Notes under the pieces: model-generated
Seen by the model: only the letters and a program-made list of their open reading frames with translations
What the model was told of the DNA's origin: nothing
Database searches by the model: none
Assembly: GCA_963721455.1 (NCBI GenBank)
Contig: CAVRJG010000052.1
Span: 162,421 to 226,420, forward strand
Source of the DNA: an uncultured Methanosarcinaceae archaeon
GTDB lineage: Archaea > Halobacteriota > Methanosarcinia > Methanosarcinales > Methanosarcinaceae
DNA length: 64,000 bases
Direction: 5' to 3'
Translations under genes and position numbers: made by a program
Part shown: positions 8,271 through 64,000 of the stretch, one piece after another
Numbering within the stretch: the first letter of the stretch is position 1
How the letters are laid out: every line of letters starts with the position of its first letter

Positions 8271-9168
8271 TCCACTTTCCGCAGGTGCGACAAGAAGCTA
8301 TACTATGAATCGCGCCATTACGCTACCTCTTCCATTTGAGGTAATCCTATTGTGACATGCATAAATGGTAACGTTTGTGTGTGGAGCTTCACATGACAAT
8401 ATCAAGAAATCAAGGAGCCTGACTTTGATAATTGGTTAGGATAAGAATACTATGAAGAACGTAAAGTGAACCATCGTAAGAATCGTGAAGTGGGATAAGC
8501 GCAAAGCAGGTTGATGCGCTTAACCAAAAGGTACAGAATCGGGCTATAATGGGTCTGCGGACATTATGGCAAATGGACAAATGATTCTCGGTTTATAGAT
8601 GGCTTCTAAGGTATTCACATTATTTGTAGTATAGAACTTGGTAAGCCCTAAATGCTCCCATAATGGGTATGACTCCCGCGAGGGATAACGATGGCATTGA
8701 GGGTGAGAGGATTCAGTAAAAAGCGAATGCCAATCTGTAATGGATTGGACAGAGGTTCAAACTTTGCCTCAATCCGAAAGGATGCAGACTTACTGATGGT
8801 GTTTTTTTTTGTGTGAATGGAAACAAACCTACAAATGTAAGATACTCAACGACACCAATAGGTGAGAGGCTTACAGACAATTATGTTAGTGGGCTGTTAT
8901 CCGGAATCACAAAATCAGTTATGCAAATAACTGGTGCCTGATACAGAAAGGGTTTGAAAACACTCGAGCCGTATGAAGGGAAACTTTCAAGTACGGTTCC
9001 TAGGGGAGAAAGGAGGAGTAATCCTCCCTACTTACCCGACATGTACACAAGAATGCCACCGATTTTCCCTATCTGGCAGTCGTTCAAAAATTAACTCCTC
9101 ATTTGATAAGTTATTTTGGACAAGTCGGCAAATTAATTCTACATCTGTGTACATCTGCGGAATGTCGG
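8271..9168. mobile_element. IS1634-derived MITE (142 bp when intron-free) whose left TIR is interrupted by a group II intron
   Basis: Removing 8285-9040 joins TCCACTTTCCGCAG+ATGTACACA, which matches the reverse complement of 9146-9168 (CCGACATTCCGCAGATGTACACA) at 20/23; same core as the IS1634 ends at 11446, 13372 and 62964. Confidence 0.8.
8285..9040 (+). ncRNA. ORF-less group II intron, copy 1 (756 nt)
   Basis: 5' GTGCGAC; domain V GAGCCGTATGAAGGGAAACTTTCAAGTACGGTTC (8966-8999); domain VI hairpin ending CCGAC; EBS1 CTGCGG in a hairpin loop at 8555; EBS2 AAGTGG at 8488. Confidence 0.93.
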
Positions 9169-11445: not shown

Positions 11446-13372
11446 CAGACTTTCCGCATATCTCGGATTATTATTCAGACATTTTTATTGGAAAACTGTA
11501 AATAATGTAACTCGCTATTGAATTTTTGAATTTTTATGCACATTACTACTAACGCCCTGGACCATCACGGTATAGTTTGTGGAATTTTCGATGAACTTGA
11601 AATTGGAAGTATTATCGATGAAGTGTTTCCCAAAGTTGGGCAGCATAAGTTAGCTCATTCAATAGTGATAAAGGCAATGATTCTTAATTGCCTTGGATTC
11701 ACTGACAGTCGACTTTACCTGTACTCTCAATATTTCGAAAACCTTCCAGTTGAAAGGTTACTTGGTCCTGGAGTTAGTGCATCAGATCTTAATGACGATG
11801 TTTTAGGGCGAACTCTTGATAAGATATACGAAGTAGATCCTACTCAACTGTTCATGAAACTTTCCATGAGAATGATGGAAATTGTGAACCTTAAGGTTAT
11901 ACAACTTCATTGTGATGATACCAATTTCAGCGTTCATGGAGACTATGAACCTGAAGACGGTAGTTCTGCCATAGAACTCACTTATGGTCACGCGAAAGAT
12001 AAGAGATATGATTTGAAGCGTTTTTCAATGGGGATGATTGTAAACCAGTATGGTATGCCATTATTTACACAGGCTTATTCTGGAAATTCATCCGACAAAG
12101 AAACCATAGTAGAAGCCATGAAAAGACTTAAAGAAAACATAGAGTTCCCTGATGATGTTTATTTCATAGCTGATAGCTCTCTGTATTCTGAAGATAATAT
12201 CAAAGCATTAAAAGACATGAAATGGATCACTCGCGTTCCCTCAACTCTGAATCTTTGTAAAGAGCTACTGACTTCTGATCTTGAGTTTAAACAGGGAGAA
12301 GACCCACGCTACTCATTTTATGAAACGATGGTTGAATATGGTGGCATAAAACAAAAATGGATAGTTGTTCACTCTGCCGAGATGCATAAAAGAAAGGAAA
12401 TTACGTTTGAAAAGAAAATAAAAAAGATAGTCAAGGAAGCTCAGAAAGAGCTTAAAGAGCTGAAAAAAATAGAGTTTGCATGTGAAGAGGACGCAAGAAC
12501 AGCCCTGGAAAGATGGAAAAAGGAAAACCCTTACTGTTTGCTGGAAACGGTGGAGACCTCCACAATCTCAAAAAGAGAAAACGGTAAGAAGGGAAGGCCA
12601 AAAAAGGGTGAAAAGCTTGTCATTCATTATGTTGTAGATGCAAAGGCTATCAGAAATGAAGAAATCGTACAGCATGAAAATGAGTATCATGGTAGATTTA
12701 TAATCGGCAGCAGTGACCCCAATCTTGATGCTGACGATATGCTGGAAAAATACAAAAACCAGAGTAAAGTGGAAAAAGGATTCAGGTTCATAAAGGACAA
12801 AAGTTTCAGGGTTTCTGAGGTTTATCTTAAGAAACCCGAAAGAATTGAAGCGTTATCAATGATCATGGTTTTAACTCTGATGGTTTACTCGGTAGCAGAA
12901 TGGAAGCTGAGAGAAAAACTAAAAGAAACAGGGGAATCAATACCGAACCAAGTTAAGAAACAAACTCAAAAGCCGACATTGAAATGGGTTTTCATGCTGA
13001 TGAGGGGGATTACGGAAGTGGAAGTAAAAACGAAATCAAAAACTAAAATTCAAATTACCAACTTGGATGAAATTAAAGAGAAGTTAATAAGGTTGATGGG
13101 AAAGAGTTGTGAAAAATACTATTTTTGAGATGAGGGTATAAGCTCTTTAAATAAAATATTTCAAGGGTTTCAGATAGCACAAGTAGCGGATGCTGTTATA
13201 TAATTCAGGAAATACCAGTTATACAATTATGAAAAATATGGGCATAGTGACAAATTCAGTTTGTGCTGTGTTTAAGAATCAACTAACTTGCCATAACAAA
13301 GGTCAATTATTATTGAACAGTAAAATATGTAATAAAATAATTTTATTTTTGTGGACATTTGCGGAATGTCGG
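11446..13372 (+). mobile_element. IS1634-family insertion sequence
   Basis: Left TIR CAGACTTTCCGCATATCTC; right TIR GACATTTGCGGAATGTCGG; no matching TSD seen. Confidence 0.8.
11536..13128 (+). CDS. IS1634-family transposase (apparently intact, 530 aa)
   Basis: LDHHGIV, LNDDVLGRTLD, YGHAKD.R.DL, IADSSLY, VEKGFRFIK and KPTLKWVF motifs. Confidence 0.92.
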   Translation: MHITTNALDHHGIVCGIFDELEIGSIIDEVFPKVGQHKLAHSIVIKAMILNCLGFTDSRLYLYSQYFENLPVERLLGPGVSASDLNDDVLGRTLDKIYEVDPTQLFMKLSMRMMEIVNLKVIQLHCDDTNFSVHGDYEPEDGSSAIELTYGHAKDKRYDLKRFSMGMIVNQYGMPLFTQAYSGNSSDKETIVEAMKRLKENIEFPDDVYFIADSSLYSEDNIKALKDMKWITRVPSTLNLCKELLTSDLEFKQGEDPRYSFYETMVEYGGIKQKWIVVHSAEMHKRKEITFEKKIKKIVKEAQKELKELKKIEFACEEDARTALERWKKENPYCLLETVETSTISKRENGKKGRPKKGEKLVIHYVVDAKAIRNEEIVQHENEYHGRFIIGSSDPNLDADDMLEKYKNQSKVEKGFRFIKDKSFRVSEVYLKKPERIEALSMIMVLTLMVYSVAEWKLREKLKETGESIPNQVKKQTQKPTLKWVFMLMRGITEVEVKTKSKTKIQITNLDEIKEKLIRLMGKSCEKYYF

Positions 13373-58803: not shown

Positions 58804-60248
58804 CATGCGTCATCGGTTAAGCATTAGATAATCACTTCTACATGCGTTTTTATAATAATAATTTAAATATTAGTGTATATATGTCTCCTCATCCCCCACC
58901 TACTCTTGAAGACTCTCTTCGGGAAATGTTTCCCGAAGAGTGGTTAAGGCAAACTGCCAAAGAAACTGGTCTCATAGTACGTGAGCGTAAAATTGACCCT
59001 GTCATCATCTTTTGGGTTTTAACTCTCAGTTTTGGTGTACGCTTGCAGCGTACACTTGCCAGTTTGAAAAGAGAATATGAAAAAGAATCAAATAAGACCC
59101 TAAGCGACAGCAGCTGGTACTATAGATTCACTCCAGAACTTGTGGAGTTTCTTCATCAGTGTGTTATTCATGGCATAGAAGAACTTGCAAAAGAACCCGG
59201 TAGAAAACTTAGTAAAAAACTCGAAAACTTCCAGGATGTTCTCATTCAGGACAGCACAATTGTTCGTCTTCACTCCTCTTTATCAGACAAGTTTCCGGCA
59301 GCAAGAGCAAGAACAGTAGCTGCTGGAGTAAAAGTGGGAGTTATGGTAAGTGCAGTTGCTAATGGACCTAAAACAGTTGCTCTGTACTCTGAAAAAACAG
59401 CTGAAATGAAAACATTGAAAATAGGGCCCTGGATCAAAGACCGTATTCTTCTTGTTGATCTTGGTTTTTACAAAAGCCAAATGTTTGCAAGAGTTGAGGA
59501 AAATGGAGGATATTTTGTCTCAAGAATTAGGAAGAATATGGATCCTATTCTTGTTTCTGTTGAAGAGGGACTTTCTAAGACAAAAAGCAAAGAGTTCACT
59601 GGAAAACCTGTTAGTGAGTGTATTAAGCAACTTTCAGGAAAAGATCTTGATGCTGTTGTGAAAATAAAGTTTAAAAGAAGAGCATACAAAGGCAAGCAAA
59701 AACAGGATGAGATGTGTGTACGTCTTGTTGCGGTATATAATGATGAAGATGAAAAGCACCACATATACATTACAAATATTCAGAAAGATGTTTTGAGTGC
59801 AAAAGACATTGCAAAATTATATGGAGCAAGATGGGACATAGAGCTGCTTTTCAAGGAGTTAAAAAGCAAATACGCGCTTGACGTTCTGGATACAAAGAAT
59901 GTGCAGGTAATTGAGGCTCTAATATGGACAGCAATGTTGACATTAATCGTTAGCAGAAGAATTTATTCTCTTGTAAAGAACAATGCGGCTCATCCTGAAA
60001 AAATGGTTCGATATACTCAAGAGAGATGGAGCATAATATTTGCTGAAAATGCATCAGATTTATTGACAGTGATTCTGCATAGATGTGGAATTGAAAGAAC
60101 TTTTGAAACAGTGATGAGTGTGTACGAAAGTCAAGCATTGGATCCACATGTAAACAGAGAAAGGTTCAGAGAAGAATGGTTAGAATGAAAAGATGAACTG
60201 AAAAACACTATTGGTAGATTGAAGTAAGTTCTTAACCGATGACCAATG
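58804..60248 (+). mobile_element. IS4-family (ISH8-like) IS, intact, 10-bp TSD
   Basis: TIRs CATGCGTCATCGGTTAAG / CTTAACCGATGACCAATG; TSD AACTTTAACT at 58794 and 60249. Confidence 0.93.
58881..60188 (+). CDS. IS4-family transposase
   Basis: IQDST, VDLGF and YGARWDIELLFKELK (YREK) motifs. Confidence 0.92.
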   Translation: MSPHPPPTLEDSLREMFPEEWLRQTAKETGLIVRERKIDPVIIFWVLTLSFGVRLQRTLASLKREYEKESNKTLSDSSWYYRFTPELVEFLHQCVIHGIEELAKEPGRKLSKKLENFQDVLIQDSTIVRLHSSLSDKFPAARARTVAAGVKVGVMVSAVANGPKTVALYSEKTAEMKTLKIGPWIKDRILLVDLGFYKSQMFARVEENGGYFVSRIRKNMDPILVSVEEGLSKTKSKEFTGKPVSECIKQLSGKDLDAVVKIKFKRRAYKGKQKQDEMCVRLVAVYNDEDEKHHIYITNIQKDVLSAKDIAKLYGARWDIELLFKELKSKYALDVLDTKNVQVIEALIWTAMLTLIVSRRIYSLVKNNAAHPEKMVRYTQERWSIIFAENASDLLTVILHRCGIERTFETVMSVYESQALDPHVNRERFREEWLE

Positions 60249-60509
60249 AACTTTAACTAAATTATCTATTGCCTAAGTTATTTCGTTACAAATCCTAAGG
60301 GCTCGTCACAAAATAATTTAATTAATACCCGAATTTGACAGAAACATACATTTTATAATGTGTAAATGGGCTTCGTGCGTCTGTTTTCTTAATATAATTC
60401 AAATTTATTTCTTGTGTTTTTTGATTTTTGACGTTTTTCATTTTTCCAAAAGGTACTGTGTCGATGCAACACTTTTTTTGTAAGAAAAAACTGTATTAAT
60501 TAGTAGAAT

Positions 60510-62964
60510 CCCACTTTCCGCAGGTGCGACAAGAAGCTATACTATGAATTGCACCATTCGCTACCTCTTCCATTTGAGGTAATCCTACTGTGACATGCAT
60601 AAATGGTAACATTTGTGTGTGAAGCTCACAGGACACTATCGAGAAATCAAGGAACCTGACTTTGGTAATCGGTTAGGATACGAATACTATGAAGAACATA
60701 AAGTGAACCATCGTAAGAATCGTGAAGTGGAATAAGCGAAAGCAGGCTGATACGCTTAACCAAAAGGTACAGAATCAGGCTGTAATGGGTCTGCGGACAT
60801 TATGGCAAATGGACAAATGATTCTCGGTTTATAGATGGCTTCTAAGGTATTCACATTATTCGTAGTATGGAACTTGGTAAGCCCTAAATGCTCCCATTAT
60901 GGGTAGGACTCCCGCGAGGGATAACGATGGCATTGAGGGTAGAGGATTCAGTAAAAAGCGAATGCCAATCTGTAATGGATTGGATAGAGGTTCAAACTTT
61001 GCCTCAATCCGAAAGGATGCAGACTTACTGATGGTGTTTTCTTGTGTGAATGGAAACAAACCTACAAATGTAAGATACTCAACGACACCAATAGGTGAGA
61101 GGCTTACAGACAATTATGTTAGTGGGCTGTTATCCGGAACACAAAATCAGTTATGCAAATAACTGGTGCCTGATACAGAAAGGGTTTGAAAACACTCGAG
61201 CCGTATGAAGGGAAACTTTCAAGTACGGTTCCTAGGGGAGAAAGGAGGAGTAATCCTCCCTACTTACCCGACATCTCCCCTTAAAAATAGTATTTTTCAC
61301 AATTTTTCCCCATCAACCTTATTATCTTTTCCTTAGTTTCATTTAAGTTTGCAACTTGAGTTACCACTTTTGAGTCAACATCCATTTTTACTTCTGTAAT
61401 TTCTCTCATCAGGATGAAAACCCATTTTAATGTTGGTTTTTGAGTTTGTTTTTTAATCTGGTTTGGTATTGTTTCCCCTGTTTCTCTTAACCTTTCTCTT
61501 AATTTCCATTCTGCCACAGAATAGACCATCAGAGTTAATACCATTACCATTGACAGTGCTTCAATTCGCTGAGGTTTTTTTACATACACCTCAGAGACCC
61601 TGAAACTTTTGTCCTTTATGAATCTGAACCCTTTTTCCACTTTACTCTGGTTTTTGTAGTGTTCCAGCATCTTTTCAGCATCAAGATTGAGGTCATTGCT
61701 TGCGATTATAAACCTCCCCTGATACTCTTTTTCATTCAGTGTAATTTCTTCATTCCTGACTGCTTTTGCATTTATAACATAGTGAACGATAAGCTTTTCA
61801 TCCTTCTTTGGCCGTCCTTTCTTCCCGTTTTCTCTTTTTGAGATCGTGGAAATCTCTGCTGTTTCCAGCAAACAGTACGGATTCTCATTCTTCCATCTTT
61901 CCAGAGCAGCTCTGGCATCCTCTTCACAGGCAAACTTTATCATCTTTAACTCTTTGAGATCTTTCTGAGATTCCGTAACCTTCCTCTGGATTTTCCTTTC
62001 AAAAGTAATATCCTTTCTTTTCTGCATCTCAGAAGAGTGAACAACTACCCATTTTTGTTCGATACCTCCATATTCAACAATAGTTTCGTAAAATGAATAA
62101 CGTGGATCCTCTCCTTTTTTGAACTCAAGATCAGATGCCAACAAATCTTTTGAAAGATTTAAGGTTGAAGGAACACGAGTGATCCATTTCATGCCTATTC
62201 CCATTGATTCTGATATTTCCGTCAGAGTATAGAGCACTATCAGCTATGTAGTAAACATCATCAGGGAACGTTATGTTTTCCTGAAGTTTTTTCATTGCCT
62301 CAATTATGGTTTCTTTGTCTGATGAATTACCAGAGTAAGCCTTTGCAAATAACGGGATTCCATACTGATTTGTTATTGTTCCAAGTCCAAAACGCTGCAG
62401 GTCGTCTCTACCGTCTTTTGCATGACCATATGTAATTTCAATGGCAGAACTACCATCGATATGTTTGTAGTCACCATAAACGCTAAAATTGGTAGTGTCA
62501 CAATGGAGGAGTTGAGTCCTGATGTTCACGATTTCCATCATTTTCAAGGCAAGTTTCATGAAAAGTTGAGTCGGATCTGCTCCATGGATCTCGTCAAGAG
62601 TCCTTCCTAAAACATCGTCATTAAGATCAGATGCACTGACTCCAGGACCAAGTAGTCTTTCAACTGGAAGAGTTTCAAAGTACTGAGAATACATGTAAAG
62701 GCGAATGTCAGTGAAACCAAGACAATTGAGAAGCATTGCTTTTACTACTATAGAATGAGCTAACTTGTGCTGCCCAAGTTTGGGCAGCACTTCGTCAATC
62801 ACTTTTCCAATTTCAAGTTCATCATAAATGCCAGAAACGATTCCGTGATGATCAAGAGAACGTGTTGTAACAAGCATAATAAAATCTAAATCAAGATTCG
62901 ATATTTTAGATATTTATACATTAATAAAAAAGGAAAAATTTGTCAGACATCTGCGGAAGGTCAG
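60510..62964 (-). mobile_element. IS1634-family IS with frameshifted transposase (62877-61281) and a group II intron in its downstream TIR
   Basis: End at 62964 reads CTGACCTTCCGCAGATGTC on the - strand; the other end rejoins as CCCACTTTCCGCAG+ATCTC after removing the intron; transposase paralogous to 11536 and split near 62210. Confidence 0.88.
60524..61272 (+). ncRNA. ORF-less group II intron, copy 2 (749 nt)
   Basis: Near-identical to 8285-9040; GTGCGAC start, domain V at 61198-61231, ends CCGAC; EBS2 at 60725, EBS1 at 60791. Confidence 0.93.
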
Positions 62965-63156
62965 ATTGAATGTACTTACAGGTCAATGTTTAAAAAGGAG
63001 AATGGATAACATCGAGGCTGTTAGGAAAGAAGTATTAGCCTGGCAAAAGTTCAGAAACAACAAAAATGCAAAGGTTAATTGGCAATTCACAACAGAAGAT
63101 GCAAGGATAAAATTATCACGTCTTTATCCGACACTTGAAGATTGACGCGACACTAG
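62965..63156 (+). pseudogene. 3' remnant of an IS630-family element
   Basis: LNVLTGQCLKRR...VNWQFTTEDARIKLSRLYP* (stop 63143-63145), then CACTAG and TA. Confidence 0.8.
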
Positions 63157-63157
63157 T

Positions 63158-64000
63158 ATAGTTCTTCACGGAACTAAATCCAAGCTTGGTAAGTACGGAT
63201 ATAGCAGGGATCATAGACCTGATAAGTTGCAGATAACAGTTGGAGTCAGTGAACTCAGAAAACCAATTAACATCCCTATTGGAATTACAGTTAATAGAGG
63301 AAACGTTCTTGATCTGCAACATTTTCCTGAGACTTATAACCAGGTAAAGAGAAATCTCAAAAAAGGATCTCTTATTGTCTTTGATAAAGGTGCAAATACA
63401 GTTGACAACATTAAGCTAATACAGGAAGATAAGATGACATATCTTACTTCCATGAAACTGAACGCAAGCGACGATAAAATCATTGAGAATTTTGATAAAG
63501 ATAAAGCAGAGCTAATAGATTCTGAAAAAAGTATTTATGGGATTAAGATCGTCAAGCCAAATAGCATTAAGTATTTTTATTTCTCAGAATCACTACAAGC
63601 GAAACAGTTGGAAGCAAAGGCAAGAACTGTTCTTAAGAAGTTACAGGAAGCAAAAGAGATACAAGAAATAATTGTTAAAAACAAAAAGCTTCCCAAGAAA
63701 TTCAGAATCAACAATGAGTTGATTGAGATTGACTACTCTTTTACAACTAAGCTCGAAGAGCTTAGTGATGATGAAGCAATAGAACTTCTGAAAAACTCGA
63801 TAATTAATGGAAGAGAAGGATTTTTCTGCCTTAAATCAAACAAGAATTTGACACTTGAGAAGGCATTAGAAATATATCGAGAGAAGGACTCTATCGAGAA
63901 AATATTCAACTCATTGAAAAACGAATTACAGATTAAGCCGTTAAGGGTTTGGTCAGATAATAGCATTTATGGAGCTGTTCTCTTAGGATTTATCCTACTT
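63158..64000 (+). pseudogene. IS1634-family transposase of a second subgroup, 5'-truncated at the IS630 end and running off the window
   Basis: Open frame with GKYGYSRDHRPDK, VFDKGAN and YREKDSIEKIFNSLK. Confidence 0.8.

Follow-up and report, generated by a model that had tools for sequence, protein, structure and literature searches.

Why would a group II intron occur twice within one stretch of archaeal DNA, each time at the identical nucleotide of the terminal inverted repeat (TIR) of a transposon? The stretch, called the window here, is the full 64,000 nt at positions 162,421-226,420 of contig CAVRJG010000052.1, from assembly GCA_963721455.1 of an uncultured Methanosarcinaceae archaeon (genome G000; 3.94 Mb in 73 contigs). 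One of the two introns (copy 2) interrupts an insertion sequence (IS) of the IS1634 family, the other (copy 1) a miniature inverted-repeat transposable element (MITE). A first-pass annotation had ascribed the pair to separate homing events rather than passive duplication. This is strongly supported by the sequence comparisons, because nine distinct sites with different 3' exons were found, occupancy goes with complementarity to the exon-binding site EBS2, the exon-binding sites covary with the intron-binding sites (IBS) of their targets, and the interiors of the host elements are not shared. Very probably, we are dealing with an intact intron without open reading frame (ORF), specialised in retrohoming into the TIRs of IS1634-family elements and MITEs in Methanosarcina, which was inserted separately at each site with help in trans and reached a dead end there.

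The intron and its two hosts in the window

Copy 2 starts with GTGCG (60524-60528) and ends with CCCGAC (61267-61272), in agreement with the conserved group II termini (5' GUGYG, 3' AY). Two Rfam models match it, both with 63.5 bits: RF02012 (domains D1-D4) at 60562-60711 (cut-off 34) and RF00029 (domains V and VI; cut-off 40). The latter match covers positions 1-77 of the 77 in the model, ends at the same 3' boundary as the intron and includes the domain V with its AGC triad and the domain VI with its bulged A. When 11 ORF-less copies from six genomes are folded to a consensus, 226 pairs are obtained. Structural constraint on the ribozyme is visible, since 48 of these pairs show compensatory double changes. 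No reverse transcriptase (RT)/maturase ORF, which an autonomous mobile intron carries in domain IV, is present in the 749 nt of copy 2. As far as its sequence tells, copy 2 belongs to a chloroplast-like (IIB-type) lineage of group II introns and has kept an intact structure, though it is ORF-less.

EBS1 (CUGCGGA) pairs with UCCGCAG and EBS2 (AAGUGG) with CCACUU; the corresponding IBS1 (TCCGCAG, -7 to -1) and IBS2 (CCACTT, -13 to -8) in the 5' exon together take up nt 2-14 of the TIR. Candidates for EBS3 were considered as well: the T/C columns 228, 234 and 309 of the alignment separate the lineages with A at +1 from those with G at +1, which gives no unique assignment, and the column at position 234 is accounted for by its helix partner at position 211.

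The host of copy 2 had been called a full-length IS1634 element. Both ends are indeed present, but the transposase is frameshifted near codon 222, as called against an intact 530-aa relative at 11536-13128 that is 74-77% identical. It is left with two overlapping ORFs (62877..62131 and 62237..61281), which match NF033559 with 199.6 and 183.5 bits (cut-off 100). The body of this IS is single-copy at 100% identity in the genome, and its closest relatives are 80% identical. The intron is placed between nt 14 and 15 of a TIR of ~20 bp, at the transposase-distal end and antisense to the transposase, and divides this TIR into 14 + 6. The inner piece was identified by comparison with the intact end (...CCGCAGATGTCT); the 3' exon is directly followed by TTA (61281-61283), where the transposase ORF on the minus strand has its stop codon, as the first-pass annotation had read it. 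The other IS end is the inverted sequence CTGCGGAAGGTCAG at 62951-62964.

The same 13-nt exon, CCACTTTCCGCAG, precedes both introns (60511-60523 for copy 2, 8272-8284 for copy 1), while the 3' exons (ATCTCCCC vs. ATGTACAC) and the outer flanks are unlike, all as previously noted. Both Rfam models match copy 1 above their cut-offs (RF02012 at 8324-8435, RF00029 at 8964-9040). The two introns differ in 31 alignment columns (24 substitutions and 7 indel columns). These are confined to intron positions 27-616, and no difference is found in positions 617-749, which hold domains V and VI. The earlier remark that EBS1, EBS2 and domains V and VI are unchanged is correct for EBS1, for the domains and for the six-nucleotide core of EBS2; at position 208 (60731), directly 3' of this core, copy 2 has A where copy 1 has G. 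The interiors of the two hosts have only the TIR in common: their local alignment score is 18, against a shuffle maximum of 21. Hence, the MITE does not appear as a deletion derivative of the IS, the relation that the first-pass annotation had named as fatal to separate homing.

Table 1. Positions of the intron copies, their host elements and the adjoining features in the window.
Feature	Position	Strand or size	Evidence or remark
ORF-less group II intron, copy 2, 749 nt	60524..61272	+	Rfam; GUGCG...CCCGAC ends; multi-copy comparison
Domains V and VI of copy 2	61196..61272	+	RF00029 full model; copy 1 identical there
EBS2 (AAGUGG)	60725..60730	+	unpaired region of consensus fold; pairs with IBS2
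EBS1 (CUGCGGA)	60791..60797	+	hairpin loop; pairs with IBS1
IS1634-family IS with intron	60510..62964	1706 bp once intron excluded	TIRs and transposase
Outer 14 nt of IS1634-type TIR, CCCACTTTCCGCAG (5' exon)	60510..60523	+	IBS2 and IBS1; length from MITEs with target duplications
3' exon, ATCTCCCC	61273..61280	+	first ~6 nt (61273-61278) are the inner piece of the split TIR
IS1634-family transposase gene, antisense to intron	61281..62877	-	NF033559, DUF4277, DDE_Tnp_1
Intact unoccupied TIR, transposase-proximal end	62946..62964	-	inward reading CTGACCTTCCGCAGATGTC
Truncated ~185-bp MITE of a different family, TIR CCCTAATTTGACAG	60326..60510		upstream flank matches about 12 loci
ATTGAA, one copy of 6-bp target duplication in IS630-like element	62965..62970		partner on contig C30
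Copy 1-bearing MITE	8271..9168	+, ~142 bp without intron	Rfam, exon and TIR comparison
Outer TIR of this MITE	8271..8284		
Copy 1, 756-nt intron	8285..9040		
Far TIR of this MITE	9155..9168		

Targets, copies and probable helpers across the genome

The insertion sites are genuine transposon ends. The 14-nt end C[CT]NNC[TC]TTCCGCAG, followed by ATGT..., constitutes the paired inverted ends of unoccupied MITEs of ~224 bp, for example at C39:235368-235589 and C39:262339-262562, which are flanked by 6-bp target duplications (TTAGAA and AAACAT, respectively). Since MITEs of the same TIR type have such duplications, the length of 14 nt for the outer TIR was accepted; this also bears out the earlier statement that the intron, antisense to the transposase, leaves the outer 14 bp of the TIR contiguous. 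Several intron-bearing elements have retained a target duplication in cis: ATATTA at C71, TTTAAT at C54b, TTTTAT around the RT-encoding intron C15a, and, in two other genomes, ATCTAA (G013) and TTGAAT (G041). The intron always reads inward from the TIR, and either element end is usable: ends of the transposase-distal type are occupied in copy 2 and C54b, the other type in C44/C71 and C30, and in the MITE of the copy 1 type opposite ends are occupied in G000 and G041.

Seven copies in the genome, copy 2 included, are 100% identical over all 749 nt. The C59 copy differs from them by one substitution, and the C71 copy and copy 1 are 97% and 96% identical to copy 2. All 10 near-identical copies are preceded by TTCCGCAG, and together they give nine distinct junctions on the 5' side and nine on the 3' side, C44 and C71 being a single locus with at least 1.5 kb of upstream flank in common. 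More distant are the copies on C25 and C12 (91%), which have the same flanks and a 5' end mutated to ATTCG, and the one on C49 (80%). Among the 59 genomes of the genus, 29 contain the lineage, this one included. The exon-intron junction is found in Methanosarcina sp. Mfa9, Methanosarcina sp. 2.H.T.1A.6, M. spelaei MC-15 and several metagenome-assembled genomes. Five junction loci are present in M. spelaei, and for four of them a contig end is no more than ~35 nt away, which is expected of a multi-copy repeat. Relatives of ~80% identity in G001 are located at other, non-TIR sites.

The occupied sites are mostly those that pair fully with EBS2. The genome contains 639 TCCGCAG sites, 12 of which pair 6/6 with EBS2 (G-U pairs included). 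Nine of these 12 are occupied (8/11 if the tandem duplicate on C59 is counted once), compared with two of the 627 others, and these two are C44 and C71, a single locus. Furthermore, the EBS-IBS pairings covary in three other lineages. The RT-encoding copies combine EBS1 CUGCCGA with IBS1 UCGGCAG and EBS2 AAGCAG with IBS2 CUGCUU; the C49 lineage has EBS1 UACAGAA for IBS1 UUCUGUA; and an RT-encoding intron in the complete genome G003, inserted between CTGACTTTCCGCAG and ATGTC, keeps EBS1 CUGCGGA with IBS1 UCCGCAG and pairs EBS2 AAGUCA with IBS2 UGACUU.

Three relatives of 2143-2148 nt (two on C15, one on C19) are ~84% identical to copy 2 over domains I-III and carry 512-codon open frames with a YADD motif, one aa apart. 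Their protein matches RVT_N, RVT_1, GIIM and TIGR04416 (353.7 bits, cut-off 300), and the domain profile search found no HNH/endonuclease domain in it. The closest solved structure is the Thermosynechococcus elongatus intron maturase 6ME0_C (E 1.4e-151), which we take to be the maturase of a chloroplast-like intron of the TeI3/TeI4 family. In BLAST, the matches of copy 2 to the 2143-nt relatives comprise its positions 1-589 and 640-733, which correspond to the two ends of these relatives; hence, ~1.4 kb of domain IV is missing from copy 2. The analogy with the TeI3/TeI4 introns and the seven identical copies at matching targets suggest that the RT/maturase of these relatives can supply the ORF-less intron in trans. 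The relatives themselves occupy the same position in TIRs of the TTCGGCAG type, which are the ends of a second group of IS1634 elements, with 46% identical transposases, and of an abundant MITE family of ~250 bp, and they fill three of the 20 sites that match them fully.

Taken together, EBS2 and EBS1 pair with nt 2-14 of the TIR, and the intron is integrated between nt 14 and 15; beyond this, the proposed course of events would be the following. Having lost ~1.4 kb of domain IV, the intron would depend in trans on the endonuclease-less RT/maturase of its three 2.14-kb relatives, and strands of the replication fork would prime reverse transcription. A recent burst would have produced the separate insertions at nine sites, those of copy 1 and copy 2 among them. 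With its TIR split into 14 + 6 bp, the end would become unusable for transposition, and the intron-bearing elements would stop spreading. Such a loss of the end is the most likely outcome, given the cut in the TIR, the lack of an amplified intron-bearing element and the frameshifted single copy. Whether the intron brakes the IS or hitchhikes on its transposition had been left undecided by the first-pass annotation. No identical intron-bearing IS or MITE was found at a second locus of the genome, which speaks against hitchhiking; the single frameshifted IS fits a dead-end or brake outcome, its cause being unproven.

Some further observations concern the same elements. The abundant MITE family of ~250 bp, whose ends read CCTACTTTCGGCAG followed by GTCGAC, contributes about 75 TIR-like ends (e.g., C16:7103-7353 and C3:105305-105555). 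Of these, 35 ends of the CCTACTTTCGGCAG type match EBS2 AAGUAG of the 91% intron lineage perfectly and are all empty, and that lineage is represented by C25/C12 alone, where the 5' splice site is mutated to AUUCG. The intact relative of the host IS (window 11448-13128, 530-aa IS1634 transposase) has a second, 99.6% identical copy at C53:19840-21429. Its left TIR is CAGACTTTCCGCAT, with a T where EBS1 needs G at -1, and TTCCGCAT is found at this position in both copies. In the only relative with an intact transposase, this may be an escape change; as the two copies diverge before any TIR, the right end of the element is not definable and the idea is a hint. Upstream of copy 2, an IS4-family transposase gene (58842-60188, plus strand; NF033592, 248 bits) lies on the strand of the intron at a distance of ~335 nt and is a possible source of read-in transcription.

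Outside assembled genomes, Logan contigs that cover the intron stem from soil, freshwater and sediment metagenomes and from metatranscriptomes; intron relatives are present in RNA-library contigs, and no sequencing run containing the whole stretch was found (best share of words 0.47). Among the many variants in soil and sediment metagenome contigs, G>A and G>C occur at 60729 (EBS2) and G>C at 60795 (EBS1), which reproduce the EBS variants of sister intron lineages.

Flanks of copy 2 and competing explanations

The surroundings of the host IS are less simple. The 6 nt outside its two ends do not match (TAGAAT on the left, ATTGAA on the right). On the left, the 185-bp MITE is without its last ~13-14 nt, and the 14-nt segment of the IS1634-type TIR stands in their place. 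On the right, positions 62965-63160 are the right part of an IS630-like element (DDE_3, HTH) that was split by the IS1634 insertion. Uninterrupted copies of this IS630-like element read ...GAGATTGAATTGAATGTACTT. Its left part is found on C30 (14082-14381) as ...GATTGAATTGAA, continuing with CCTACTTTCCGCAG and an identical intron, and the right junction in the window reads ...CTGCGGAAGGTCAG and then ATTGAATGTACTT. Combined with C30, a perfect 6-bp duplication of ATTGAA is thus obtained in trans. The 3' side of the C30 intron is not the IS, but a MITE-like fragment beside a thioredoxin gene. An exchange of flanks between identical introns has therefore taken place, either through real recombination or during assembly. 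Since each of the junctions fits within one read, the presence of the intron in a TIR beside the transposase stop holds either way.

This bears directly on the question of how far the window shows an original insertion. It is an even call whether two different intron-bearing elements contributed the left flank with its 14-nt exon (60326-60523) and the IS body (61273-62964), which would have been joined through homologous recombination of identical 749-nt introns or through wrong threading of a repeat; the outer TIR of the IS would then be the CCTACTTTCCGCAG on C30, and the 5' exon truly belonging to it may be CCTACT... rather than CCCACT... The duplication that is perfect with C30 and mismatched within the window argues for such a joining, as does the missing end of the 185-bp MITE, for which the assembly contains no reciprocal junction. 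Chimeric joins do occur: the last ~3.3 kb of C44 (154600-157964) have 60-72% GC, compared with 42.5% for the genome, and the join lies within the far TIR of a MITE that bears the intron. This tail has the appearance of a chimeric contig end; on C71, the locus was assembled a second time, with the 97% intron variant. On the other hand, the cis duplications at C54b, whose intron is also 100% identical, and at C71 indicate that the pairing is right at least there; the two junction sequences of copy 2 are so short that they can be real whichever partner is right, and the location of the intron in a TIR is unaffected. On C59 (1250-2600), a tandem duplication of the 5' flank and the first 167 nt of the intron was observed directly upstream of a full intron copy.

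Two other explanations concern the origin of the sites. A single entry into an IS1634-type element, multiplied afterwards by its transposition or by its decay into MITEs, would also leave intron-bearing MITEs with target duplications if the MITE moved together with its intron. This passive spread is highly improbable, for the interiors of MITE and IS share nothing besides the TIR, the nine different 3' flanks belong to several element types, and the IS body is single-copy. The only two of the 10 copies with a shared interior, C44 and C71, are one locus, and the seven identical introns reside in hosts that are 75-97% alike or unrelated. A somewhat better case, though still an unlikely one, is that co-conversion of the 5' exon during retrohoming rewrites nt 2-3 of the TIR to the donor sequence CCCACT, rather than EBS2 choosing pre-existing sites. 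It would explain why five of the nine occupied sites read (C/T)CCACT, when empty ends of the same MITE types are mostly CTGACT or CCGACC. However, empty CCCACT ends exist (C8:84737, C51), CCTACT, CCCGCT and CCGACC are occupied as well, and the EBS2 variants of other lineages match the TIR variants of their own targets. Choice of existing ends by EBS2, followed by separate insertion, remains the preferred reading.

Several points weigh against this reading. Neither copy 1 nor copy 2 has a target duplication in cis, and at two of the nine sites (C13 and C8) the 3' flanks are unlike TIR interiors and cannot be assigned to a TIR. Three fully matching sites (C8:84737, C51 and C67) are empty, and the occupied C44/C71 site has two EBS2 mismatches; the CCCACT sequence of five of the nine occupied sites is rare among empty TIRs. 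As the chimeric end of C44 adjoins an intron copy, the pairing of left and right flanks across the seven identical copies is insecure. The RNA-library contigs that hold the intron demonstrate neither transcription nor splicing, and the brake effect is deduced: one frameshifted single copy cannot show a cause.

A wider and rather doubtful interpretation is that of an arms race between introns and transposons in an archaeon. Sister lineages would repeatedly adapt their EBS1 and EBS2 to the TIR variants found in IS1634 subfamilies and their MITEs, nearly saturate the perfectly matching ends (9/12) and disable them. The identical introns left behind would then provide mobile stretches of homology through which the flanks of transposons are reshuffled, as suggested by the ATTGAA junctions of C30 and the window.

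Relation to known introns and significance

Comparable behaviour is known from bacteria. RmInt2 inserts into the inverted repeats of ISRm17, both of which are usable; according to its authors, this guarantees one target on the lagging-strand template (PMC4615759). The insertion of RmInt1 is reported to block the spread of ISRm2011-2 (PMC5894124). Like RmInt2, the present intron lies inside IS inverted repeats at either end, has a putative helper intron-encoded protein (IEP) with no match to an endonuclease domain and is found in several identical copies, which points to recent spread; its target is likewise set by EBS/IBS pairing with mismatches tolerated in IBS2, and a limit on IS spread was proposed by the authors of RmInt2 too. 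Unlike RmInt2, a bacterial intron of class D (IIB3) with its own ORF, it comes from an archaeon and has no ORF, and the maturase closest to its helper IEP is a chloroplast-like one. Moreover, its targets comprise IS elements of the IS1634 family and several MITE families, and sister lineages have been retargeted to other TIR variants. Because the best solved relative of the helper IEP is 6ME0_C and not a class D protein, the resemblance to RmInt2 appears to be one of behaviour and not of descent.

The ORF-less TeI3 introns of T. elongatus are mobilised in trans by TeI4 IEPs (PMC2882425). They share with the present intron a deletion of ~1.4-1.5 kb in domain IV, a copy number higher than that of the ORF-containing parents, families defined by EBS changes and good EBS/IBS pairing at their sites. 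TeI3 introns are found in other introns, intergenic sites and genes, whereas the targets here are transposon ends; and in the schematic of the TeI4h IEP (PMC2882425), D and En domains are drawn, while the Methanosarcina IEP has no HNH domain match. Within the same genus, the introns of M. acetivorans described by Dai and Zimmerly (2003) home into the ORFs of related introns and form nested twintrons (reviewed in PMC4424553). ORF-less and RT-encoding forms coexist there as well, and site-specific homing into mobile sequences is repeated without coding exons; the difference lies in the target, the terminal repeat of an IS or MITE instead of another intron. By analogy, the present intron would be an archaeal counterpart both of the RmInt2/ISRm17 behaviour and of the trans-mobilised proliferation of ORF-less introns known from T. 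elongatus. Full-text searches of the literature yielded no account of introns that home into the repeats of IS1634 elements or MITEs in archaea, although an earlier description is possible.

Archaea, too, would hence have evolved the kind of homing into terminal repeats of transposons that is known from one bacterial class D intron, here in an ORF-less, chloroplast-like lineage and extended to MITEs. With occupied and empty ends, four pairs of EBS and TIR variants, and intact helper RTs, the genome offers a natural series in which the retargeting of introns and the restraint of transposons may be followed. Finally, identical 749-nt repeats within repeats are a likely cause of contig breaks, and of chimeric joins or real rearrangements, in Methanosarcina assemblies.

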